Positions 1,193 through 13,986 of a DNA stretch of 13,986 nt are shown here, in pieces. The translations under genes and the position numbers were made by a program. The notes under the pieces were generated by a model, which saw nothing but the letters and a program-made list of their open reading frames with translations, was not told where the DNA came from and did no database searches. Numbering within the stretch: position 1 is the first letter of the stretch; every line of letters begins with the position of its first letter. The stretch is from a virus (lineage: Duplodnaviria > Heunggongvirae > Uroviricota > Caudoviricetes), in the IMG/VR virus record IMGVR_UViG_2609459823_000005, one strand, 5' to 3'.

Positions 1193-2281
1193 GTGAAAAT
1201 ATTGGTCACAGGTGGGGCAGGTTTTATTGGATCTGCTGTCGTCCGTAATATCATTAAGAATACTCAGGATTCTGTAGTTAATGTTGATAAATTAACCTAT
1301 GCGGGCAATCTTGAATCGCTGGTTGAAATCGAAAACAGCGCCCGTTATGCTTTTGAATGTGCAGACATTTGTGATGCTGAGGCGATGTCGCGTATTTTCG
1401 CCACTCACCAGCCTGATGCTGTTATGCATCTGGCTGCAGAAAGCCATGTAGATCGCTCGATCACCGGCCCTGCTGCTTTTATTGAGACAAATATCGTGGG
1501 CACCTATGTGCTGCTTGAAGCCGCACGTAAATACTGGTCTCAACTTGATGAAACAAGTAAAGCCGCGTTCCGCTTTCATCATATTTCAACGGACGAAGTC
1601 TACGGCGATTTGCCGCATCCTGATGAAGTCCCCGCTGGCACCGCCTTGCCGCTGTTTACCGAGAAAACCCCTTATTCTCCCAGCAGTCCGTATTCCTCAT
1701 CGAAAGCGTCAAGTGACCATTTAGTACGTGCATGGCGCCGTACTTACGGCTTGCCGACCCTGGTGACGAATTGCTCAAATAACTATGGCCCATACCATTT
1801 CCCTGAAAAACTTATTCCGCTGATCATTCTTAATGCATTAGCTGGTAAGCCGTTACCGGTGTATGGCAATGGCGAGCAAATTCGCGACTGGCTATTTGTT
1901 GAAGATCATGCACGCGCCTTATATAAGGTCGTCACTGAGGGGGTTGCGGGTGAGACTTACAATATCGGTGGTCACAATGAGCGTAAGAATATTGAAGTCG
2001 TAAATACTATTTGTACTATTCTGGACGAAATCATTACTGCGAAACCTAATAATATTAGTAGCTTTGCAGAATTAATTACTTATGTCACCGACCGTCCGGG
2101 CCATGATCTGCGTTACGCCATTGATGCGAGCAAAATAAAAGATGAACTGGGCTGGGTACCGCAGGAGACTTTTGAATCAGGTATCCGCAAAACGGTTGAA
2201 TGGTATTTGACTAACCAGGACTGGTGGCAGCGTGTGATGGATGGATCATATGCTGGTGAACGCCTGGGGCTCGCAGAATAA
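1193..2281 (+). CDS. rmlB: dTDP-glucose 4,6-dehydratase
   Basis: Preferred start is the in-frame GTG at 1193, giving [14 protein letters not shown] (Rossmann GxxGxxG) and a length of ~362 aa. The catalytic YSSSK (YxxxK) and other blocks ([21 protein letters not shown]) closely resemble E. coli RfbB as recalled. The track's ATG at 1106 is rejected because that extension overlaps JUMPStart/ops. Confidence 0.92.
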
Positions 2282-2296
2282 AATCGTAAGGACGGA

Positions 2297-3172
2297 ATGA
2301 TGAAAGGTATTGTATTAGCTGGCGGTTCTGGAACTCGTCTTTATCCGATTACTCAGGGTGTGTCAAAACAGTTATTGCCTGTTTATGACAAGCCGATGGT
2401 TTTTTACCCAATATCAGTTCTAATGTTGGCAGGTATTCGTGACATTTTGATTATCACGACGCCGGAAGATATGGCCGCGTTTCAACGCCTGTTGGGAGAC
2501 GGCTCTCAATTTGGTATTCGCCTTTCCTATACTGTCCAACCTTCGCCGGACGGTTTAGCGCAGGCATTTATTCTGGGTGAAGAGTTCATTAATAATGAAC
2601 CTTGTGCTCTGGTGCTGGGCGACAATATCTATTTTGGTCAGAGTTTTGGTAAAAAACTCGAGGTTGCCTCTCAGTTGACCCAAGGTGCGATGGTATTCGG
2701 TTATAAAGTACAGGATCCTGAGCGTTTTGGTGTGGTTGAATTTGATGCGAACTACAAGGCATTGTCCATTGAAGAAAAACCACAGAAGCCAAAATCCAGT
2801 TGGGCAGTAACCGGTCTCTATTTTTACGACAAAAACGTTGTGGAAATGGCGAAGCAAGTCAAACCATCTGCTCGCGGTGAACTCGAAATTACGACACTTA
2901 ACCAAATGTATCTTGAACGCGGTGAGCTTCAGGTAGAGTTGCTCGGACGTGGTTTCGCATGGCTTGACACCGGCACACATGACAGTCTGGTTGAGGCTTC
3001 ACAGTTTATTCATACCATTGAAAAAAGGCAGGGTATGAAAGTCGCTTGCCTTGAAGAGATTGCGTTTCGCAATGGATGGATCGGCAGAGAACAACTTTTA
3101 GCGCAGGCAAAACTGTTCAGCAAAAATGATTATGGTAAGTATCTAAAAGTATTGGCTGGAGAACATGAATGA
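2297..3172 (+). CDS. rmlA: glucose-1-phosphate thymidylyltransferase
   Basis: The N-terminus [16 protein letters not shown](x)[13 protein letters not shown] is the nucleotidyltransferase signature, and the ~290-aa protein closely resembles E. coli RfbA. There are tandem ATGs at 2297 and 2300; the RBS aaggacgg (2288-2295) favours 2300. The stop overlaps the rmlC start (ATGA at 3169-3172). Confidence 0.92.
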
Positions 3173-3705
3173 ACGTCATTGACACTAAAATAAGCGATGT
3201 GAAGATTATTGAGCCAAAAGTCTTTGGTGATGAACGAGGGTTCTTTTTAGAAACATTTGAAAAAAAGAGATATCAAACCCTTTTGAATATCGATATGGAT
3301 TTTGTACAGGATAACCACTCACGTTCCAGCAAAGGCGTACTTCGTGGGCTTCACTTTCAGCGCAATAATCCTCAGGGGAAACTTGTTCGAGTAGTTCGTG
3401 GCGAAGTGTTTGATGTTGCTGTTGATATTCGTAAAGACTCACCAACCTATGGGGTGTGGGAAGGTGTAATTTTGTCAGAAACGAATAAAAAGCAATTCTG
3501 GATCCCACCGGGACTTGCTCATGGTTTCCTGGTACTCTCGGATATTGCTGATTTCGAATATAAATGTACCGACTATTATGATAGCAGTAGTGAAGGCTGT
3601 TTAATCTGGAATGATGAGCAAGTTGGGATTGCATGGCCAGTAATAGACGCTGAGATTAAACTTTCAGCAAAAGATGCTGTTGGTAAGTTACTGCGTGACC
3701 TATAA
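3169..3705 (+). CDS. rmlC: dTDP-4-dehydrorhamnose 3,5-epimerase family protein (RmlC-like cupin)
   Basis: The 178-aa protein has [11 protein letters not shown], the catalytic His in VLRGLHFQ, the GKLVR lysine, [10 protein letters not shown] and a Tyr in FEYK, which is the RmlC fold signature. Whether it performs a full 3,5-epimerisation or a single epimerisation cannot be told from sequence. Confidence 0.8.
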
Positions 3706-3716
3706 GTTTTACTAAC

Positions 3717-3746
3717 AGGCGTAGATATTTTCTACGCCTATTTTTT
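3717..3746 (+). terminator. Intrinsic-terminator-like hairpin between rmlC and wzm
   Basis: A perfect 9-bp stem aggcgtaga (3717-3725) / tctacgcct (3731-3739) with a 5-nt loop is followed by a T-run at 3741-3746. A TATAAT hexamer at 3754-3759 lies just before the wzm start. Confidence 0.55.
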
Positions 3747-3760
3747 GAGGCGCTATAATA

Positions 3761-4540
3761 GTGTTTAATAGTTTCATTCAAGGCCTGATAAATTATCGTG
3801 TTGTACTAAAACAATTAATAAGACAACAAGTAACGCTCAGGTATCGCAGAACAATGTTCGGTTTTTTATGGACCCTGCTTAATCCTCTTCTGAATATGGC
3901 AGTAATAGCGACTGTCTTTTCAATCGTAATGAAATTTCAGATAAGAGACTACGCCATTTTTCTCTTCTCTGCAGTTATTCCTTGGACTATGTTTTCAAAT
4001 ATCATTTCACAATGTTCTAATTCATTGATAGCAAATGAAAATCTATTTAAAAAAATATACTTACCAAAACAGATATTTATAACCGCTAGCGCAGTATCTG
4101 TTTTTATTGATTCGCTTCTGAGTACTATCTGTTTATTCATCATTGCATATTTCTTTGGCGCAAAATTAAGTTTGGCATTGATGTTTCTTCCAGTTTCATT
4201 TGCGATCTTATTTATATTCGCTTATGGTTTGGGTCTGATTTTTTCTGTAGTTTCTGTTTTTTTGCGCGACATGCAGTATCTGATCGGTGTGATTTTGCAA
4301 GCTCTATATTTTATGACCCCTATCATATATCCCGTTGATGCTGTTCCGGAACAGTACAAATGGGTTTTTGCATGGAATCCTATGTACTATTTTGTTGATT
4401 TATTTAGGGATCCAATCTACAACAATCAATTCCCTCCAGCTTATTCATTACAGCTTTGTGCGCTGACTGCCATTATTTCACTTTTGGTTGGTTTGTATGT
4501 ATTTAAAGTAAATGACAAAAAAATTATCTTCAGGTTGTAG
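3761..4540 (+). CDS. wzm: O-antigen/polysaccharide ABC transporter permease (ABC-2 family)
   Basis: The N-terminal motif LRYRRTMFGFLWTLLNPLL is typical of Wzm/KpsM, and the rest of the 259-aa protein is strongly hydrophobic with multiple predicted TM segments. Start is assigned to GTG 3761 with GAGG at 3747-3750; the ATG at 3854 would remove the conserved motif. The 3' end overlaps the wzt reading frame. Confidence 0.82.
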   Translation: MFNSFIQGLINYRVVLKQLIRQQVTLRYRRTMFGFLWTLLNPLLNMAVIATVFSIVMKFQIRDYAIFLFSAVIPWTMFSNIISQCSNSLIANENLFKKIYLPKQIFITASAVSVFIDSLLSTICLFIIAYFFGAKLSLALMFLPVSFAILFIFAYGLGLIFSVVSVFLRDMQYLIGVILQALYFMTPIIYPVDAVPEQYKWVFAWNPMYYFVDLFRDPIYNNQFPPAYSLQLCALTAIISLLVGLYVFKVNDKKIIFRL

Positions 4541-4541
4541 T

Positions 4542-5291
4542 ATGGAATCTAAAATTATTTTTAAAAATGTCTCTCTCGTATTTGATGAACATCAGCAACG
4601 AGGTCTGACGTTCAAAGAGTTATTTGCACGCACTCTCTCCGGTCGGAATAACGCTATAAAGGCGAATAAGAGAAAAGCTTTGGATTCAATAAGTATCGAG
4701 ATAAACCATGGAGAGCGAATCGGTATTGTCGGAAGCAATGGGGCAGGGAAAAGTACGTTCCTAAAAACACTTTGTCGTATTTATGAGCCAACCTCTGGTG
4801 AAATAAGCATATCAGGTAATATTGCACCGTTACTTGAGATTGGGGCTGGATTTAATCCAGAACTAAGCGGAAGAGAAAATATATATTTGAATGGTGCAAT
4901 TCTGGGCCATAGTATTTCTGAGCTTAAAAGTTTGGAAGCAGAAATTATTTCATTTTCAGAATTAAGTGAATATATTGATACACCTGTCAAATATTATTCA
5001 ACGGGCATGTATCTTAAATTAGCATTTTCAATTGCGACGGCAATCAAGCCTGATATTTTAGTTTTAGATGAACTGTTTGCTGGCGGTGACGCGGAATTTG
5101 TTGCTAAAGCTAAAAAAAGAATGGAACATTTCATCGCGGAATCAAGCATTATGTTTTTTGTATCTCATCAATTAGATTTGCTGCAGGAATTATGTACCCG
5201 CGTAATATGGATCGACCATGGTAAATTAATTGCTGATGGTGTACCAGACAAGGTAATTGAAGCATATTTGAATAAAGGTCATCATGATTAA
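4542..5291 (+). CDS. wzt: O-antigen/polysaccharide ABC transporter ATP-binding protein, short form without a C-terminal carbohydrate-binding domain
   Basis: Walker A GIVGSNGAGKST, ABC signature YSTGMYLKL, Walker B ILVLDELFAGGD and an H-loop (FFVSHQ) are all present. The track ORF begins at ATG 4512, but ATG 4542 (MESKIIFKNVSL) immediately follows the wzm stop and gives a typical N-terminus. At ~250 aa the protein is a nucleotide-binding domain only. Confidence 0.85.
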   Translation: MESKIIFKNVSLVFDEHQQRGLTFKELFARTLSGRNNAIKANKRKALDSISIEINHGERIGIVGSNGAGKSTFLKTLCRIYEPTSGEISISGNIAPLLEIGAGFNPELSGRENIYLNGAILGHSISELKSLEAEIISFSELSEYIDTPVKYYSTGMYLKLAFSIATAIKPDILVLDELFAGGDAEFVAKAKKRMEHFIAESSIMFFVSHQLDLLQELCTRVIWIDHGKLIADGVPDKVIEAYLNKGHHD

Positions 5292-6045
5292 TATTATAAT
5301 AGTCAGCCATCAAAATTTAGCTGACATTGATAAAATTCTCACAGAACTTGCGGGTGAAAATGATTATTATACTATTTATGTTCGTGACAATGTTGCTGAT
5401 GAGAATTTGAAGCGCCTTTGTTCTGATTATAACGTCTCATATTGTTCTGGTATTCGCCGAGAAGGCTTTGCCCTTAATAATAATATTGCTGCCGAAAAAG
5501 TATTACACTCATGTGAAATAGCTGATGATGATTATTTCCTGTTTATGAATCCTGATGCATATATTATTCGCGACGAGCTGATCAAACTCTCAACTATTTT
5601 GAGCGAAAAAAAATACGATATGTTCACTGTTGATCTGTATAGTAATGATGAATATACAATAAGAGATCCTTCCATTCGATATTTTCCAACGCTAAAAACA
5701 TTTCTATCTTCTTTTTTATTTGATACTAACAAAAGTATTATTAACAGGGATGCCATTCATCAAGATTTCGACCTGGATTGGTGTGCTAGCTCATTCTTTG
5801 GCGTTAAAGTTGGTTTGTTTAAAAGACTTAATGGCTTTGATTCCCGATTCTTTATGTATTGTGAAGATGTGGATATCTGTTACAGGGCTAAAAAATTAGG
5901 AGCCAAGCTTAGTTATATTGCAAATGTAAAAGCAATACACTACACTCAGAAAAATAGTAAAAAGATGCTCACTAAAAATTTTTATTGGCACGTTAAAAGT
6001 GCCATATTGTTTTTATGGAAAAAGCATACCCTGTCAAAAGGTTAA
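5284..6045 (+). CDS. GT2-family glycosyltransferase, WbbL-like dTDP-rhamnosyltransferase (candidate Rha to GlcNAc-PP-undecaprenol adaptor transferase)
   Basis: The 253-aa protein shares blocks with the E. coli WbbL rhamnosyltransferase as recalled from memory: IIIVSH, VRDN, DDDYFLFMNPDAY, DWCASSF, NGFD, FFMYCEDVDICYR, AIHY and WHVKS. The start overlaps the wzt stop by 8 bp. Confidence 0.6.
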   Translation: MINIIIVSHQNLADIDKILTELAGENDYYTIYVRDNVADENLKRLCSDYNVSYCSGIRREGFALNNNIAAEKVLHSCEIADDDYFLFMNPDAYIIRDELIKLSTILSEKKYDMFTVDLYSNDEYTIRDPSIRYFPTLKTFLSSFLFDTNKSIINRDAIHQDFDLDWCASSFFGVKVGLFKRLNGFDSRFFMYCEDVDICYRAKKLGAKLSYIANVKAIHYTQKNSKKMLTKNFYWHVKSAILFLWKKHTLSKG

Positions 6046-6050
6046 GATAA

Positions 6051-6944
6051 ATGTATTCTGTTGTGATGGGATTCCGCGAAAACTATAAACATTATGGGTA
6101 CACTACTCTTTTTTCTTTATTAACAAATAATAAAAACTCTTTTTTTTCAATCTATCTCCTTTCAGATAATCTGGATTTTGCATTTTTTAAAAAACTGGAG
6201 GATGTTTTTGCTTGCAAAATCATCCCTATTTCTATTTCGGCTGATCATATTGAAAATGTAAATTGTGGCTATCTTTCCTTTGGGACACTAATCCGCTTAT
6301 TAATCGGTGATTATCTTCCTGCTAATGTCGAAAAGGTTCTATACCTTGATGCTGATTTGATAATTGATGGCGATATTCATGAACTTCTTAATTATGAGTT
6401 AGGTTCACAGTATGCGGCAGTCGTAAGATCGAGTGCTCCTTATAAGCATCTCAAGGACATTAGGATAACATCCGAGCAGTACTTTAATGCGGGGGTGATA
6501 CTTTTTAATATGGAGATGTGTAGAAAAGATGATATTTTCATAAAAAGCCTTGATTTGTTAAAACGGAATAATTTTAAATATTTAGATCAAGATGCACTTA
6601 ATATTGCAATGGTAAACAATGTAAAATATGTTGATTCTAAATGGAATTTCGACTCATTTAGAGCAAAAACAATCTTACTTGATAGGAGTTATGCAAATAA
6701 ATACCCTGCAATAGCAATTTATCATTTTACAGGGCGTGACAAACCATGGTTTAAACATTGCATCAACCAGTATCAGAGTATTTATCTTCGTTATTTCGCT
6801 GAAATTCTAGGCTATGATGTTATCAATAATAAAAATAAATTTCAGTATTTTAAATTTAAACTGATTAAATTCTTATTCAGTAACTTTGTAACCCGTAAAA
6901 TTATTTACCATTTAAGAAACTATATTCGGACTAATATTCACTAA
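6051..6944 (+). CDS. GT8-family retaining glycosyltransferase (RfaJ/RfaI/LgtC-like; alpha-hexosyltransferase)
   Basis: GT8 hallmarks are present: the DxD motif in LYLDADLIIDGD, FNAGVILFN, YLDQDALN and the C-terminal HFTGRDKPW (H-x-x-G-x-x-KPW). Length is 297 aa and the donor sugar cannot be assigned from sequence. Confidence 0.75.
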   Translation: MYSVVMGFRENYKHYGYTTLFSLLTNNKNSFFSIYLLSDNLDFAFFKKLEDVFACKIIPISISADHIENVNCGYLSFGTLIRLLIGDYLPANVEKVLYLDADLIIDGDIHELLNYELGSQYAAVVRSSAPYKHLKDIRITSEQYFNAGVILFNMEMCRKDDIFIKSLDLLKRNNFKYLDQDALNIAMVNNVKYVDSKWNFDSFRAKTILLDRSYANKYPAIAIYHFTGRDKPWFKHCINQYQSIYLRYFAEILGYDVINNKNKFQYFKFKLIKFLFSNFVTRKIIYHLRNYIRTNIH

Positions 6945-6953
6945 GGACATTTT

Positions 6954-8333
6954 GTGGAGACTATACAAATAGCCACTGGAGTAAGTCGTAACTTCTTTGA
7001 CCCATTGAGTGTCATGCTTACTTCCTTGCTTGAAAATAATCAATCACATAAAATCAATTTTCATGTTTTGCACAGTGATTTTACGGATGATGATGAAGAA
7101 AAATTTAGCCTTTTGTTTACTAAATATGAAAACCTGGGGCTTAAATTCATCAAGTTAGATGAATCTAAATTAGAAGGGCTTCCCCTTCTGCAACATTTCA
7201 AGATCTCAACGTATTTTCGAATTCTGGCGCCAGCTGTTTTAAGTGAATATGATAAACTCCTTTATCTCGATGCCGACATTATTGTTGACAATGATATTCT
7301 GGAATTATGGCAGACCGATGTCACCAACTATACCCTCGCAGCAGTTCGTGAAGAGAGTATTGTCGCGTTAGATAAACGTTTGAGAATGCCTGCCAATTAT
7401 AAGTATTTCAATGCTGGTGTTGTTGTATTAAATAGTAAAAAAATTCGAGAAGAAAATAAGTTCGGTCCTGTTATCGATTATCTAAAAGAAAATATCAATG
7501 AGATCCTTTATCTTGATCAGGATGCTTTAAATGCTATTCTCTACGATGAATGGTTAGAAATAGACGAGAAATGGAATTATCATAATACCTTTATCCTGAA
7601 AAAAAATAATAACAAAGAGCATATCTTATTAGATAAACCAGTTATTATTCATTATACTGGTCCAGTCAAACCATGGGATGCGGAAAGTTCACATATATTT
7701 AAAAGCCGCTATTGGCATTACAAGAAAATATTAACAGGGAGTGTCGATGAAATTAAAGCTGGTTTTAACATACATAGTACGCTTGCTAAAAGAATAATAA
7801 AATATGCATATAGAGTTATTCTTTCCAATTATTATTTAAGAAAGCTGATTCTTAAAACAAATACATCATTAAAGCAGAGTGAGCATTTTGCGAAATATTA
7901 TTTTAAGTTTAAGGAACGTTTTGCTCCTGCACCTCAGATAATGTCGTCATTCGAAGCGAAGTTAGTTCAAGTTGATGTACCACTTCTAGAATCAACCATG
8001 GATTATGGTTTTTTCAGTATAAGGGAGTTCTTGAACTATATACAAATTTCTGGATATGTTTTCAAAAAAGAGTTTTCTGATAGAAATACTAATAAATATT
8101 TTGTCTTGAGAAACAGTGTCGACCCTAATTTGCTATATTGTTTTAAACTTAACAGTCATGACCATGTTTGGATTAATGATATATATAATGATGGTAATGA
8201 CTATTCAAAAAGTGGGTTCTTTAATTTCATCGGCAAAAGAGAGCTTAAAAGTGGAAGGTATGAAGTTGGATTAATCGTCCAAAATTCAAAAGGTGTACAT
8301 TATAAAATGACTGACACTACAGTAATTATTTGA
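6954..8333 (+). CDS. GT8-family glycosyltransferase with an extra ~190-aa C-terminal extension (two-domain protein)
   Basis: The N-terminal ~260 aa carry the GT8 motifs LYLDADIIVDND, FNAGVVVLN, YLDQDALN and HYTGPVKPW. The C-terminal portion has no GT8 similarity and contains a block (ISGYVF ... LKSGRYEV) that is also seen in the next protein. Start is GTG 6954 with RBS AAGGA at 6943-6947. Confidence 0.75.
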   Translation: METIQIATGVSRNFFDPLSVMLTSLLENNQSHKINFHVLHSDFTDDDEEKFSLLFTKYENLGLKFIKLDESKLEGLPLLQHFKISTYFRILAPAVLSEYDKLLYLDADIIVDNDILELWQTDVTNYTLAAVREESIVALDKRLRMPANYKYFNAGVVVLNSKKIREENKFGPVIDYLKENINEILYLDQDALNAILYDEWLEIDEKWNYHNTFILKKNNNKEHILLDKPVIIHYTGPVKPWDAESSHIFKSRYWHYKKILTGSVDEIKAGFNIHSTLAKRIIKYAYRVILSNYYLRKLILKTNTSLKQSEHFAKYYFKFKERFAPAPQIMSSFEAKLVQVDVPLLESTMDYGFFSIREFLNYIQISGYVFKKEFSDRNTNKYFVLRNSVDPNLLYCFKLNSHDHVWINDIYNDGNDYSKSGFFNFIGKRELKSGRYEVGLIVQNSKGVHYKMTDTTVII

Positions 8334-8343
8334 CGAGGAATCC

Positions 8344-9564
8344 ATGGATATTAAAATTTATTCGTCTTTTTATAAAAAATACTTCATTTATAAAAGCGAC
8401 ATTGTAGAACCTGTTTTTGTTGGTGCGGCCGAAAAGAATAATGATTTAGGCATCATTGGTGATGATACTGGCGATAATATTAGCGATAAAAACGGCACGT
8501 TCAATGAATTAACTTTAATTTATTGGGTCTGGAAAAATACTACAAATCAAGATTATGTAGGCTTCTGTCATTATAGAAGATATTTTATAAATAGAAGCAT
8601 CAGTAAATTTGAAAAAGCATTGCATCTTCTGATTCCACGCGATAAAGAGCGTAGAGAGCGTAAATTATTACGTTTGTTACAGCAGTTTGATAAAAATTGT
8701 GAATCCGAATTGAAAGGATTTGATATAGCGTTACCTAAGCCTATTGTTATGAATCGTACTTTGCGTGAACAATATGCTGATTATCATGATGGCGCGCATT
8801 ATGAGGAAATGGGTAAGGTTATTCGAGAATTACGTCCTGACATGTGGCCTGCTTACGAAGATGCGTCAAATCGAAATACTTTCTTCATCGCTAATATGTT
8901 CATTTTTAGCCGCAAGTATTTTGATCAATTTTGCGAGTTTGCCTTTCCGGTTCTTTTTGAACTAGAGAAAAGGTTAGAAGTGCCGGATGATATGTATCAA
9001 AAACGTATTTTTGGATACTTAGGTGAGCGGTTGGTAACAATCTTTGTAAATTATTTATATCAACAAAAGAATGTTAAATTCAAATATTTTGATCTATTAA
9101 ATACTGATGTTATTTTTTCAAATTACAAATCGTATCTAACCGAAAAAAAATTAATAAGCAGTAAAAATAAAAACTACGTCACTTTTGGTGCTGTTGATAA
9201 TCTAATCAAAATGTCAAACAATTTTTACTGCATGAATGGTTGGGTTATAATTAAAGATCGCGAATCCTATAATGTTACGGTTCAAATTGAGTTATATAGT
9301 GATGAAAACACTATTATGCTTAATAGCGAAAGACAGGATCGGCCTGATGTAACCCGGCACTTTATCAATGTTCATGATGGGTACGTTAATTACGATAATT
9401 GCGGCTATTACACTAGTTTTAAATGTGATGAGATTAAAAGTGGTGAATATAAAATTAAGTTTCATGCATTTGATAAAATAGAGAAAACAACTTCAATTTT
9501 TTATGTTTATGACTGTTTTTTAAAGAAACATAAAAATGAAGTTGAGCTTGTGAGGTTACCATGA
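8344..9564 (+). CDS. DUF4422-type putative glycosyltransferase (WbbI/WbbM-N-like, candidate galactofuranosyltransferase) with a C-terminal extension
   Basis: The motifs ELTLIYWVWKN, VGFCHYRRYF and GYLGERLVTIF match my recollection of the DUF4422 family, which includes known Galf-transferases; this is not verified by a profile search. The C-terminal ~110 aa (NGWVI ... IKSGEYKI) resemble the C-terminus of the preceding protein. RBS GAGGA at 8335-8339; the stop overlaps the glf start (ATGA). Confidence 0.6.
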   Translation: MDIKIYSSFYKKYFIYKSDIVEPVFVGAAEKNNDLGIIGDDTGDNISDKNGTFNELTLIYWVWKNTTNQDYVGFCHYRRYFINRSISKFEKALHLLIPRDKERRERKLLRLLQQFDKNCESELKGFDIALPKPIVMNRTLREQYADYHDGAHYEEMGKVIRELRPDMWPAYEDASNRNTFFIANMFIFSRKYFDQFCEFAFPVLFELEKRLEVPDDMYQKRIFGYLGERLVTIFVNYLYQQKNVKFKYFDLLNTDVIFSNYKSYLTEKKLISSKNKNYVTFGAVDNLIKMSNNFYCMNGWVIIKDRESYNVTVQIELYSDENTIMLNSERQDRPDVTRHFINVHDGYVNYDNCGYYTSFKCDEIKSGEYKIKFHAFDKIEKTTSIFYVYDCFLKKHKNEVELVRLP

Positions 9565-10730
9565 TTAGTTATGATTACATTATTGTAGGCTGCGGTCTTT
9601 CTGGTATTGTTCTGGCAAATAATATTGCTGAGAAATTAAATAAAAAAGTGCTTATTATTGAGAAGCGCGATCATATCGGAGGAAACTGTTACGATTACTA
9701 TGATGAACATGGTGTCCTTGTACATAAATATGGTCCGCATATTTTCCATACAAATTATAAAGATGTCTATGACTACCTTGATCAATTCACTGAATGGTAT
9801 GTTTATCAGTTCCAGGCACGAACACTGATTGATGGTAAAAAAACATTTTTGCCCTTCAACCTGAACACGATGAAGGATATTCTTGACGAGCATTTATATG
9901 ACAAGATATCTAAAAAACTCATCGAAGTTTATGGTTATGATAAAACCGTACCTATTTTCGAGTTAAAAAAATCAGAGGATGAAACCATCCAATGGTTGGT
10001 TGACTATATTTACGATAAAGTCTATGTGAACTATATCGCTAAACAATGGGACATGAAACCCGAAGACCTCGACAAGAGTGTGCTTGAACGTGTTCCCGTA
10101 TATATTTCTCGCGATAATCGATATTTCAAAGACAAATATCAAGTTATGCCACGAGACGGTTATACGGTTATGTTCAACCGGATGTTGGCAAACAAAAACA
10201 TACATGTTCTGTTGAATGCTAATGCAGACGATTTTGTCACGCTGACCGATAAGCATGAAGTTCACTTCATGGGCAAGCCATTTGAAGGCAAGTTGATTTA
10301 CACCGGTCAGATTGATCATCTTTTCAATTATAAATTTGGCGAGTTACCTTATCGTTCCTTGCGCTTTGATTTTGTTAATTACAAAAAAGAGTTCTTCCAG
10401 GAAGTGGCTATGGTTAGCTACCCAAATAATTATGATTTCACTCGTATTACGGAAAGTAAGCATTTGACCGGGCAGGATTGCAAAACGACCACTGTTGTTT
10501 ATGAATATCCCCAGAATTATGATCGTAATGATCCTATCAAAGATGTACCTTATTATCCTGTGCCAAGAGCCGATAACCATGAACTTTATGCAAAATATTC
10601 AGAGCTTGCTGGTAAGTATAAATCTTTGATACTGGTTGGTCGTTTAGCTCAATACAAGTACTACAACATGGATCAGATGATCAAAGTTGCCCTTGATACA
10701 TTTAAAGAAATTCAAGCTGGAGAAAAGTAA
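9561..10730 (+). CDS. glf: UDP-galactopyranose mutase family flavoprotein (NDP-hexopyranose mutase)
   Basis: The N-terminal FAD-binding YDYIIVGCGLSGIVLAN ... KKVLIIEKRDHIGGNCY and HKYGPHIFHTN closely parallel E. coli K-12 Glf as recalled, with conserved blocks throughout the 389 aa. A dTDP-fucopyranose mutase (Fcf2-like) cannot be excluded from sequence alone. Confidence 0.85.
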   Translation: MISYDYIIVGCGLSGIVLANNIAEKLNKKVLIIEKRDHIGGNCYDYYDEHGVLVHKYGPHIFHTNYKDVYDYLDQFTEWYVYQFQARTLIDGKKTFLPFNLNTMKDILDEHLYDKISKKLIEVYGYDKTVPIFELKKSEDETIQWLVDYIYDKVYVNYIAKQWDMKPEDLDKSVLERVPVYISRDNRYFKDKYQVMPRDGYTVMFNRMLANKNIHVLLNANADDFVTLTDKHEVHFMGKPFEGKLIYTGQIDHLFNYKFGELPYRSLRFDFVNYKKEFFQEVAMVSYPNNYDFTRITESKHLTGQDCKTTTVVYEYPQNYDRNDPIKDVPYYPVPRADNHELYAKYSELAGKYKSLILVGRLAQYKYYNMDQMIKVALDTFKEIQAGEK

Positions 10731-11662
10731 TGAAGACTATTTTAATTGTTGGTGGTTCTGGCTTCATGGGTGCGAATTTTACTGAATACTTTGTTGCGAA
10801 AGGCTACAAGGTTATTAGCTTCAGTAATTCACCAACCCGTATCCAGCATGAAAATGTGGTAAATGTTTGCGGTGATAGCCGTGATGCCGAAGCTATTAAT
10901 GAAATTTTTGTTAATCACAAAATTGATTTGGTTGTTTTTACGTTGACGAGTTTTTGGGTGGTTGATGGGGTGAGCTCCTATCAAGATTTGACCGCCATTA
11001 ACCTGACTGCGTTTATCGATGTACTGAATATCATGAAGCGTCACAATGTTAATGAAGTGATTTACATCTCTTCTGGTGGCTCTATCTATGGAGAGTCCGA
11101 TAAGCCGATTCCGGAAGATTCACCGCTCTGCCCGGTCAGTTTTTATGGCTGGATCAAAGAAGCGGCAGAAAGCTATCTTAAATATGAAGCCCGTATTAAT
11201 CCCCATTTGCGCTATCTTGTATTTCGTCCTTCCAATGTTTACGGAAAATATCAGCAGCTCAACCGCATCATTGGTGTAGCGCTTAAAAATACACATTTGG
11301 ACATCCCAATGAATATTTATGGTGGTGCGGATACGAAGAAAGACTATATTTATATCGATGATTTCTGTGAGATCATCTTTAATATCTTGAATAAAAATGT
11401 CTGGAACGAAACGTACAATATTGGTTCTGGTGTCGGAACCAGCATTCGAGAAATTCTGGATCTTGCTCAGGAAGTTGTGAATAAGCCACTTGCTGTTGAG
11501 TATGGAAAACAGAAAGAGGGTGATATCAGTTATAGCGTATTAGATGTTGAGAAAGTTAAGGCTGTAACTGGTAAGCAAAGCTTCACCAACGTCAAAGACG
11601 GCATGCGTAAAATGTATCCGTACGTTGTCGAAGAACTGGCACGTCTGGCAGCGAAGGCCTAA
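10730..11662 (+). CDS. NAD(P)-dependent epimerase/dehydratase (extended SDR) family protein; candidate nucleotide-sugar 4-reductase or 4-epimerase
   Basis: Rossmann motif IVGGSGFMGANF at the N-terminus and catalytic YGWIK (YxxxK) preceded by ISSGGS. Length is 310 aa and the start overlaps the glf stop (TAATG). Precise activity is not assignable by eye. Confidence 0.7.
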   Translation: MKTILIVGGSGFMGANFTEYFVAKGYKVISFSNSPTRIQHENVVNVCGDSRDAEAINEIFVNHKIDLVVFTLTSFWVVDGVSSYQDLTAINLTAFIDVLNIMKRHNVNEVIYISSGGSIYGESDKPIPEDSPLCPVSFYGWIKEAAESYLKYEARINPHLRYLVFRPSNVYGKYQQLNRIIGVALKNTHLDIPMNIYGGADTKKDYIYIDDFCEIIFNILNKNVWNETYNIGSGVGTSIREILDLAQEVVNKPLAVEYGKQKEGDISYSVLDVEKVKAVTGKQSFTNVKDGMRKMYPYVVEELARLAAKA

Positions 11663-11862
11663 TAGCTTATCCTGCTTCTTGAGCAAGAGATGATTGTAAT
11701 GGTTTTGTTAACACTTTTTTGCTCAATAGTGGGCTAGTCCTTTAAAACTTTTTTAGGTTAACATGTTAGTCACGTATCCCGACGGCGAATGCGGCGTCGG
11801 GAATCCACACCTGACAGGAGTTTTGCATGCCTAAGCAACAAATCGGCGTTGTTGCTTAGGCC

Positions 11863-13233
11863 GTGATGGGGCGCAACCTGGCGCTTAACATCGAAAGCCG
11901 TGGCTATACCGTTTCCGTTTTCAACCGCTCCCGCGATAAGACCGAAGAAGTGATTGCCGAGAACCCCGGCAAGAAGCTGGTTCCGTATTATACCGTGAAA
12001 GAGTTTGTTGAATCCTTAGAAACTCCCCGTCGCATCCTGTTAATGGTGAAAGCGGGCGCTGGCACAGATGCTGCTATTGACTCCCTGAAACCCTATCTGG
12101 AAAAAGGCGACATCATTATTGATGGCGGTAACACCTTCTTCCAGGACACCATTCGTCGTAACCGCGAACTGTCTGCTGAGGGCTTTAACTTTATCGGTAC
12201 CGGTGTGTCCGGTGGTGAAGAGGGCGCACTGAAAGGCCCATCCATCATGCCTGGCGGTCAGAAGGATGCCTATGAACTGGTCGCACCGATCCTGACCAAA
12301 ATTGCAGCCGTTGCCGAAGATGGCGAGCCCTGTGTGACCTATATCGGTGCTGACGGTGCGGGCCATTACGTTAAAATGGTTCACAACGGTATCGAATATG
12401 GCGACATGCAGTTGATTTCAGAAGCCTACTCTCTGCTGAAAGGCGGTCTTAACCTGTCTAACGAAGAGCTGGCCACCACTTTTAGCGAGTGGAATAAAGG
12501 CGAGCTGAGCAGCTACCTGATCGACATTACCAAGGACATCTTCACTAAAAAAGATGAAGAGGGTAACTATCTGGTCGATGTGATTCTCGATGAAGCGGCC
12601 AACAAAGGTACGGGTAAATGGACCAGCCAAAGCTCGCTGGATCTCGGCGAACCGCTCTCCCTGATCACCGAATCCGTATTCGCACGCTATATCTCGTCGC
12701 TGAAAGAGCAGCGCGTTGCCGCATCTAAAGTTCTGAGCGGTCCGCAGGCCCAGCCTGCTGGCGATAAAGTGCAGTTTATCGAGAAAGTCCGTCGCGCATT
12801 GTATCTCGGTAAAATCGTCTCTTATGCCCAGGGTTTCTCTCAGTTGCGTGCTGCGTCTGACGAATACAACTGGGATCTGAACTATGGCGAAATCGCGAAA
12901 ATTTTCCGCGCTGGCTGCATCATTCGTGCACAGTTCCTGCAGAAAATTACCGATGCATACGCTGAAACACCGGCAATTGCTAACCTGCTGTTGGCACCTT
13001 ACTTTAAGAAAATTGCCGATGAGTATCAGCAGGCTTTGCGTGATGTTGTAGCCTATGCCGTACAAAATGGTATTCCGGTACCGACTTTTGCCGCTGCGGT
13101 TGCCTATTACGATAGCTACCGTGCTGCGGTACTGCCGGCAAACCTGATTCAGGCTCAGCGTGATTACTTTGGCGCACATACTTATAAACGTACTGATAAA
13201 GAAGGTGTATTCCATACGGAATGGCTGGATTAA
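11863..13233 (+). CDS. gnd: 6-phosphogluconate dehydrogenase (decarboxylating), N-terminal region disrupted
   Basis: The 456-aa ORF matches E. coli Gnd over essentially its whole length ([17 protein letters not shown] ... GVFHTEWLD). The conventional start is ATG 11827, preceded by RBS AGGAG (11816-11820), and would encode MPKQQIGVVA before an in-frame TAG at 11857-11859. The intact ORF therefore restarts only at GTG 11863 / ATG 11866 and lacks the first strand of the NADP-binding fold. Confidence 0.8.
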
Positions 13234-13264
13234 TCTGATATTGTACGTTTTGTCGAATAAATAT

Positions 13265-13288
13265 CCTCCGGCATAGCCGGAGGTTTTT
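13265..13288 (+). terminator. Rho-independent terminator downstream of gnd
   Basis: An 8-bp GC-rich stem cctccggc (13265-13272) / gccggagg (13276-13283) with loop ata is followed by TTTTT at 13284-13288, about 30 bp after the gnd stop. Confidence 0.7.
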
Positions 13289-13364
13289 CAAATGCGCCTA
13301 TAAGGCTCTCTTACCAGCCGCGCCCTAACAGGCGCACACGATCTGACATTTGCATCCAACTTCG

Positions 13365-13745
13365 TTACTTACGGCCCGTAAACGGGCTGCCCGGATAGGG
13401 AATCGATAACTGCTCTCCCATTTTATCCTCTTCAAGCTGGTGCTTTATGTAATCCTGTATCTTCGCCGTGTTCTTACCCATCGTATCGACGTAATACCCT
13501 CTGCACCAGAACTCCCTGTTCCTGTATTTGAATTTCAAATCACCAAACTGCTCGTAAAGCATCAGACTGCTTTTCCCTTTCAGATATCCCATAAAGCCTG
13601 ATACGCTCATTTTGGGCGGGATCTCCACAAGCATATGGATATGATCTGCACAGCATTCAGCTTCCAGAATCCGTACACTTTTCCACTCACACAGCTTTCT
13701 CAAAATACTGCCTGTTGCTCTACGCTTCTCTCTGTAGAACACCTG
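13365..13745 (-). pseudogene. tnpA: IS200/IS605-family (IS200-like) transposase tnpA, 5'-truncated by IS1 insertion
   Basis: The minus-strand ORF encodes FYREKRRATGSILRKLCEWKSVRILEAECCADHIHMLVEIPPK ... YPGSPFTGRK, which matches IS200 TnpA as recalled, including the HuH motif (HIHML). About 27 N-terminal codons are missing; the match stops at 13745, where IS1 sequence begins. Confidence 0.85.
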
Positions 13746-13986
13746 GGTAATGACTCCAACTTATTGATAGTGTTTTATGTTCAGATAATGCCCGATGACT
13801 TTGTCATGCAGCTCCACCGATTTTGAGAACGACAGCGACTTCCGTCCCAGCCGTGCCAGGTGCTGCCTCAGATTCAGGTTATGCCGCTCAATTCGCTGCG
13901 TATATCGCTTGCTGATTACGTGCAGCTTTCCCTTCAGGCGGGATTCATACAGCGGCCAGCCATCCGTCATCCATATCACCACGTCA
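13746..13986 (-). mobile_element. IS1 insertion sequence, terminal ~240 bp (one end at 13746; the rest lies beyond the window)
   Basis: From 13746 the sequence reads GGTAATGACTCCAACTTATTGATAGTGTTTTATGTTCAGATAATGCCCGATGAC..., the canonical IS1 terminal sequence as recalled, and it contains the 3' end of insB on the minus strand. Confidence 0.9.
13761..13986 (-). CDS. insB: IS1 transposase InsB, C-terminal part (partial; the 5' end is beyond the window)
   Basis: The minus-strand translation [72 protein letters not shown] matches the IS1 InsB C-terminus as recalled. The ORF is open to the window end. Confidence 0.85.

Follow-up and report, generated by a model that had tools for sequence, protein, structure and literature searches.

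Quasipalindromes (imperfect inverted repeats) are mutational hotspots in Escherichia coli, at which template switching makes the palindrome more perfect (PMC7202029, citing Ripley 1982 and Dutra and Lovett 2006). Such mutations arise in DNA synthesis; they are restrained by ExoI and ExoVII and stimulated by azidothymidine, 5-azacytidine and fluoroquinolones (PMC7202029, PMC6357072). The template-switch model is attributed to Ripley 1982, the natural hotspot in thyA to Viswanathan et al. 2000 and Dutra and Lovett 2006, and the lacZ QP5 and QP6 reporters to Seier et al. 2011, each as cited in PMC7202029 and PMC5941160. The subject of what follows is a copy of gnd, the gene of 6-phosphogluconate dehydrogenase (6PGDH), in a stretch of 13,986 nucleotides (nt) that is filed as IMG/VR virus record IMGVR_UViG_2609459823_000005 and is referred to below, at its full length, as the window. 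Codon 11 of this gnd is an amber TAG, set inside a perfect 13-base-pair (bp) inverted repeat. Very probably the gene is a loss-of-function allele generated by one quasipalindrome-templated mutation, and the palindrome is the scar of that mutation, not a functional element.

The resemblance to the thyA hotspot and the lacZ reporters is close: an imperfect repeat was there beforehand, a multi-base change was made in one step, the new bases complement the other arm, and the gene is knocked out. The gnd case is unlike them in being a natural allele that is fixed in a wild lineage and present in many isolates, and that is known here from sequence alone; it also resides on a module found in different replicon contexts, in which the strand concerned may be leading or lagging. 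Van Noort and colleagues reportedly followed quasipalindrome correction by comparative genomics in 2003 (in Trends Genet), and Loytynoja and Goldman are said to have dealt in 2017 with human mutation clusters of this kind. As in those cases, a cluster of substitutions between close relatives is accounted for by copying off the opposite arm of a nearby inverted repeat; unlike them, ancestor and derivative are here only ~0.1% apart over 13.7 kb, so that the polarity of the change and its singleness are unusually clear, and the event makes a stop codon in a housekeeping-type gene.

The placement of this gnd also has a parallel. E. coli ETEC1720 (NZ_CP122859.1, 4220254-4238797) and three related enterotoxigenic strains from pigs have a second gndA, intact, at the end of an IS5-flanked cluster (pseI, DUF4422, glf, galactose-phosphate transferase) that adjoins ghoST and dcuSR, which makes two gnd places in the genome. 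In both cases gnd is the last gene of an acquired polysaccharide cluster that is flanked by insertion sequences (IS) and lies outside the native locus. The ETEC1720 gndA is, however, annotated as intact, its cluster differs in content, and the gnd region is only ~85% identical. Finally, Carter-Muenchau and Wolf are said to have described, in 1989, growth-rate regulation of gnd in which an internal complementary sequence (at about codons 67-78) pairs with the ribosome-binding site. The common element is an mRNA structure involving the gnd translation start; whereas that element is a normal part of the gene, the hairpin considered here spans codons 1-12, holds a stop and is absent from intact alleles. 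Mechanism and gene are both known, and what is new is the instance only, a very clean natural case.

The gnd start region

The features on which the argument turns are the following (here and throughout, positions are those of the window).

11816-11820, + strand: Shine-Dalgarno sequence AGGAG of gnd, read directly, 6 nt 5' of the ATG at 11827-11829.
11827-11859, + strand: remnant of the native gnd start, from translation; ATG and nine sense codons (together MPKQQIGVVA), then the amber TAG at 11857-11859.
11829-11841, + strand: left arm of the palindrome, GCCTAAGCAACAA; untouched by the mutation, and its probable template.
11830, + strand: the C of codon 2 (CCT, Pro); T (Ser; TCT or TCC) in 21 of 21 relatives.
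11842-11848, + strand: hairpin loop ATCGGCG, 7 nt.
11849-11861, + strand: right arm of the palindrome, TTGTTGCTTAGGC, mutated; ancestral form TTGTTGGTATGGC, by comparison with the intact loci L016, L019 and L048.
11855-11858, + strand: putative templated patch, G11855C, A11857T and T11858A, with 11856 unchanged; the ancestral 10/13 quasipalindrome was mismatched at these three positions and at no others.
11863-13233, + strand: residual gnd open reading frame (ORF), 456 amino acids (aa) from GTG 11863 or 455 aa from ATG 11866, ending in TAA at 13231-13233; from gene-caller annotation and profile match.

A first, sequence-only reading of this DNA had described the ribosome-binding site, the MPKQQIGVVA-TAG frame and the perfect 13-bp repeat; on re-reading, these particulars and their coordinates are all exact. 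The arms GCCTAAGCAACAA and TTGTTGCTTAGGC are complementary at 13 of 13 positions, with the TAG inside the repeat. Among perfect 13-bp inverted repeats with loops of 3-20 nt, it is the only one in the window, against an expectation of 0.013 (300 first-order Markov simulations of the window, dinucleotide frequencies kept). For the 33-nt hairpin the folding energy is -19.0 kcal/mol in RNA form (z = -6.6) and -13.1 kcal/mol in DNA form (z = -6.8), both z scores being relative to shuffled sequences. The CACACCTGACAGGAG motif is kept in related gnd leaders except in 2 of 21, and a promoter scan upstream of gnd finds no sigma-70 consensus.

An intact sister allele and the origin of the stop codon

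Three E. coli assemblies (loci L016, L019 and L048) contain the same cluster with an intact gnd, whose 468-aa product aligns residue for residue, from 1 to 468, with the E. coli Gnd structure 2ZYA. (Another 24 contigs were grouped with these three as similar places, without their sequences being read.) The intact site reads GTTGTTGGTATGGCC; the sister allele starts MPKQQIGVVGMAVMG, that is, in codons, ATG CCT AAG CAA CAA ATC GGC GTT GTT GGT ATG GCC, behind the same leader as in the mutant. At the site, intact and mutant alleles differ solely in GGTATG versus GCTTAG.

The ancestral repeat, GCCTAAGCAACAA-ATCGGCG-TTGTTGGTATGGC, is paired at 10 of 13 positions. All three changes that complete it are located in the right arm, within 4 nt, and each is to the Watson-Crick complement of the left arm: G11855C pairs with G11835, A11857T with A11833 and T11858A with T11832, for 13 of 13. 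Completion of the repeat takes the whole hairpin, as DNA, from -6.3 to -13.1 kcal/mol. The inner stem of the ancestral form, TTGTTG/CAACAA, is able to prime, folding with -3.4 kcal/mol as DNA. These changes stand out against a background of very little divergence, ~0.1% over 13.7 kb between ancestor and derivative: the window is separated from intact L048 by 11 substitutions over that length, three of them within 4 nt, and over 7 kb intact and mutant alleles are separated by 7 substitutions, the same three included. Elsewhere in the window the new patch, taken at 8-11 nt, has a match solely in the complement of the left arm; a donor for gene conversion, which would refute this origin, would read GCTTAGGCC in a gnd context. 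An imperfect ancestral repeat, derived bases that without exception complement the opposite arm, and what appears as a single-step change are the marks of quasipalindrome mutation, and all are found here. On this comparison, the stop codon and the perfect palindrome are to be read as one event, the correction of a pre-existing quasipalindrome.

The template switch itself is what we infer from these ancestral and derived sequences. During synthesis of the coding-sense strand, the nascent 3' end TTGTTG (11849-11854) would pair with CAACAA (11836-11841), a partner offered by the sister template or by the nascent strand itself. Polymerase would copy at least 4 nt (11855-11858) off the left arm and then go back to its proper template, leaving GGTA changed to GCTT and GGT ATG changed to GCT TAG (G10A and M11stop). 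The switching strand would be the coding-sense one because it is the right arm that is rewritten from the left.

A degenerate pattern of the site identifies related gnd genes in 14 metagenome contigs and in 7 species genomes, with Kosakonia, Phytobacter and Enterobacter among them. Of these 21 relatives, GGTATG is present in 21 and the perfect hairpin in none. The nearest gnd, 95.9% identical, belongs to Phytobacter ursingii; E. coli gnd alleles reach only 85-87%. One step toward the palindrome is peculiar to the module: T11830C (S2P) is present in its intact and mutant alleles alike, raises complementarity from 9/13 to 10/13 and makes the outer GCC/GGC clamp; it may have predisposed the site to the later triple change. 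With regard to recurrence of the conversion in other gnd backgrounds, the exact 25-mer of the mutant has 0 matches in JGI metagenome contigs, and there is no evidence in these sequences of a recurrent hotspot outside the module.

Alternative explanations

Fold-back artefacts can generate perfect palindromes, and the window is a short, IS-bounded draft contig; an assembler, chimeric fold-back reads or editing might, as the sequence-only reading had allowed, have made the palindrome out of a gene that is in truth intact. That proposal is refuted by the distribution of the mutant sequence. The 120 nt around the site are identical in 8 of 8 loci (L001-L008), and the palindrome with its TAG is present in contigs of 21 distinct samples from three archives (NCBI assemblies dating from 2014 to 2025, ENA metagenome assemblies and Logan runs), that is, across projects and years, and in re-assemblies (Logan) that are independent. 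The exact 455-aa product is found in 33 contigs (76 index blocks), which NCBI names E. coli, and the 456-aa form in one contig. (Loci were fetched by exact look-up of the truncated product or of neighbouring cluster proteins, namely rmlB from its GTG start, rmlC and the epimerase; across the mutant loci so obtained, identity covers those 120 nt or else the whole overlap.) The mutants also carry lineage-specific markers and form sublineages, and artefacts are not inherited. An artefact is excluded because the mutant sequence is inherited across these 21 samples; its probability is put at practically nil. Three independent point mutations, or a nonsense mutation with chance neighbours, that merely happened to complete the palindrome are discounted to the same degree. 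Nothing specific speaks for them, although single-nucleotide polymorphisms (SNPs) do accumulate in the module (~30 variable sites). The three changes fall within 4 nt on a branch that otherwise has ~1 change per kb; all are at the sole mismatches and all are to the complementary base, at the observed divergence, the probability that one branch would gain two more such specified substitutions is about 1e-7 or less; and haplotypes with one or two of the three changes are absent from 24 module-bearing samples and 21 relatives.

The proposition that the palindrome is a functional translation-control hairpin, also raised by the sequence-only reading, fares slightly better and is nevertheless highly improbable. 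Its substance is that the stem sequesters the start, a 10-codon leader is translated, and reinitiation at GTG 11863 or ATG 11866 yields a regulated, active, shorter Gnd. Regulation of E. coli gnd does proceed through mRNA structure; the RNA fold, at -19.0 kcal/mol, is stable, starts at the G of AUG and is extended in its 78-nt context; an AGG 5 nt before ATG 11866 and a stop 7 nt upstream of it fit translational coupling; and the remaining ORF is intact in most isolates. Yet the perfect stem is present in 0 of 3 intact sister alleles and 0 of 21 relatives and has no covariation history, and it has no match in Rfam, where the sole hit, of 15 bits, falls short of the gathering threshold of 49. 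Models of the 6PGDH family and solved homologues reach 2-12 positions further toward the N terminus than does the residual ORF, the product would be devoid of strand β1 and of G10 of the dinucleotide-binding loop, and in one sublineage the 3' end of gnd was later deleted. Control with restart is left unsupported, the three derived bases being explained mutationally.

Inactivation of gnd by a quasipalindrome-templated mutation, the explanation preferred here, has to be set against several points that weigh on the other side. Correction of mismatches in an extruded hairpin would give the same product, the template switch being a step that sequence does not display. The AGG (11858-11860) located 5 nt 5' of ATG 11866, with the TAG 7 nt upstream, may permit some reinitiation and thus some truncated protein. 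Four of the five gnd substitutions in the mutant clade are synonymous, a pattern that gives no statistical indication that constraint was relaxed. That the same cells also have a native gnd is presumed, inspection having been of loci rather than of whole assemblies. Lastly, IS-spanning junctions in short-read contigs may be mis-joins, so that placement of the module on plasmids and islands (see below) is probable.

Probable loss of function

The residual ORF matches TIGR00873 at profile positions 9-466/467 and NF006765 (476 positions) from position 13. Its only in-frame restart codons are V13 (GTG 11863) and M14 (ATG 11866), so that the product is without residues 1-12/13 of the intact protein, including strand β1 (QIGVVG) and G10 of G10-x-A12-x-x-G15; the full-length match of a functional Gnd, inclusive of β1 and the G10-M-A12-V-M-G15 loop, is not found. 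GxAxxG is taken as the NADP-binding fingerprint of Gnd, on general grounds and on the alignment with 2ZYA. In Rossmann folds, loss of β1 and the first glycine should abolish folding or NADP binding. To judge by the fold, the truncated enzyme is most likely inactive, because its product has neither β1 nor the first glycine of GxAxxG.

A pseudogene or N-terminal truncation was the first of the possibilities in the sequence-only reading, and it is the one that is supported: by G10A and M11stop, by the intact sister allele, and by later lesions in one sublineage. That sublineage (L020/L021) has S338P (window 12838), at a residue that is conserved with E. coli Gnd. L020 has in addition an IS1-adjacent deletion of 751 bp (window 12995-13745) that removes the 3' end of gnd together with an IS200-like gene: its position 3867, corresponding to window 12994, is joined to 13746 (L021 ends at window 12990). 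These lesions are consistent with a dead gene.

The leader of gnd has structure of its own. At 11777-11802 there is a GC-rich hairpin of -19.1 kcal/mol, and stable hairpins of differing sequence are present in 15 of 15 distinct gnd leaders (-8.4 to -19.1 kcal/mol; folded sequence by sequence, the stems being too variable for MAFFT alignment). They end ~5 nt 5' of CCACACCTGACAGGAG and have a conserved GTTAACAT-like motif upstream of them. Such a hairpin may be a stem that stabilizes the 5' untranslated region or an operon-boundary structure. The leader of the ETEC1720 gndA resembles the window from 11757.

Single origin and spread

The intact alleles share 7073T and 13481C; 2066T and 4664A are added in L048, the sole intact locus that reaches these two positions. 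The mutant loci lack 7073T, 2066T and 4664A throughout, and 13481C recurs in L005 only. (L005, a metagenome-assembled copy, has a cluster of 8 substitutions in a 150-bp stretch of the IS200-like gene, at window 13452-13599, and none elsewhere, probably reflecting collapse or recombination with another IS200 copy.) The mutant loci separate into two sublineages, a window type (4964A, 9534A and 12831G) and a second that keeps the ancestral states at these positions. By the evidence of these markers, the mutant allele has a single origin. A perfect palindrome cannot be reversed by the mechanism that made it; the intact alleles are therefore not revertants.

The mutant allele persists and has spread, probably as a redundant passenger at the end of the module, the gnd in question being Phytobacter-like. 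The knock-out would be tolerated because this gnd is probably redundant with a native gnd. Mutant alleles outnumber intact ones, 33 contigs to 15 when counted by exact proteins and 21 samples to 3 among those inspected; the exact neighbouring epimerase is found in 135 contigs, some of them with the 468-aa Gnd. It has to be asked whether an allele of the same mutational origin spread because losing an extra gnd is advantageous, for example by sparing the cell costly surplus 6PGDH from a mobile multicopy element. The numerical excess, the presence of the mutant in at least three flanking contexts and the fact that gnd was struck again in one sublineage would be in keeping with this; but sampling, or hitch-hiking with a successful clone or plasmid, can account for the excess, and one of the contexts is common to intact L048 and mutant L050 (flanks 99.9% identical). 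Spread by such an advantage, through selection for losing the extra gnd, is judged possible but unlikely.

A second repeat in the module has also been perfected. T9534A, which makes N397K in the DUF4422 protein, arose within the mutant clade; through it an 11-bp inverted repeat (9498-9508 and 9526-9536) with a 17-nt loop became perfect. Of 41,958 possible single substitutions, 26 make a repeat of at least 11 bp, which sets the expectation at 0.017 for ~27 SNP events; T9534A is possibly another template-switch event. Counting it with the gnd triple, 2 of ~28 independent substitution events in the module population are repeat-perfecting. That template switching at short imperfect repeats is a major natural source of mutation in this module, and that the gnd knock-out is positively selected, is a joint proposition that we regard as unlikely.

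An IS-bounded polysaccharide module

The remaining features of the window define the module that gnd terminates.

25-732, + strand: IS3-family transposase fragment, the left bound of the module.
1193-11662, + strand: polysaccharide cluster of the ABC-transporter type, which gnd follows as the last gene of the module.
13265-13283, + strand: terminator-like hairpin and T run, 3' of gnd.
13365-13742, - strand: IS200/IS605-family tnpA, cut to 125 aa by IS1; where gnd is intact, so is tnpA, at 152 aa.
13746-13986, - strand: end of IS1, inverted repeat GGTAATGACTCCAAC..., the right bound of the module; the same end abuts gnd at 12994 in L020.

The order of the cluster is rmlB, rmlA, rmlC, wzm, wzt, a 253-aa protein that matches glycosyltransferases only weakly, two GT8 glycosyltransferases, a DUF4422 protein, glf and a 310-aa epimerase/reductase of the short-chain dehydrogenase/reductase (SDR) type. 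(Gene callers start rmlA at its second Met, not at ATG 2297.) The rmlBAC genes (1193-3705) are present and rmlD is absent; the last cluster gene (10730-11662), which encodes the 310-aa SDR protein, matches the RmlD_sub_bind and epimerase families, and this protein may act as the 4-reductase on the way to rhamnose or 6-deoxytalose. In L033, one metagenome copy, an in-frame 6-bp deletion in rmlC (window 3414-3419) leaves 176 aa.

The sequence-only reading had noted that gnd is normally intact and highly polymorphic next to O-antigen clusters, where a disrupted copy would be unusual. The premise behind it, a normal gnd beside the chromosomal O-antigen locus, fails: galF, ugd and wzz are absent from the window, which does not show the native galF-gnd-ugd-wzz-his order, and the cluster is instead a module between IS elements that adjoins plasmid or island DNA. 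A disrupted gnd is much less surprising because the cluster is of this kind. On the left, the flank in L024 and L027 is the leading region of a conjugative plasmid (parA, impCAB/umuDC-like, dinI and psiB), with thousands of PLSDB matches; a chromosomal island carrying a group II intron, AlpA and YfjJ takes its place in L025, L026 and L029; and in L028, L048 and L050 the flank is a region of phosphotransferase system (PTS), NanE, topoisomerase and toxin-antitoxin genes, whose best match is on a 135-kb plasmid. On the right, L020 has beyond its IS1 a P4-like integrase, which E. coli chromosomes commonly carry. The module itself is present in 0 of 5,426 complete E. coli genomes and is not found in PLSDB. 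The gnd gene is probably a redundant passenger in this IS-bounded, horizontally acquired polysaccharide module. A review of E. coli O antigens (PMC7685785) mentions Salmonella O54 as the only plasmid-encoded O antigen, and none in E. coli.

Implications

No new kind of biological system is revealed by this locus. Its lessons are partly practical. When a perfect hairpin surrounds a premature stop codon, the scar of a mutation is a better reading than a regulatory element. In variant calling and in phylogenies, what is one event will be scored as three SNPs; the dead gnd is annotated as a normal 455-aa enzyme (in 33 contigs, under NCBI's name 'NADP-dependent phosphogluconate dehydrogenase'); and passenger copies of gnd on mobile polysaccharide modules can confuse O-antigen typing that is based on gnd. 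If template switching in the module should prove to be frequent and the knock-out selected, a proposition rated above as unlikely, the module would offer a natural system for studying quasipalindrome mutagenesis and its triggers, such as exposure to fluoroquinolones, in the wild. For E. coli itself, the meaning of the gnd allele is that a mutation mechanism known from the laboratory would make multi-base knock-out alleles in wild strains as well, and that these then spread.

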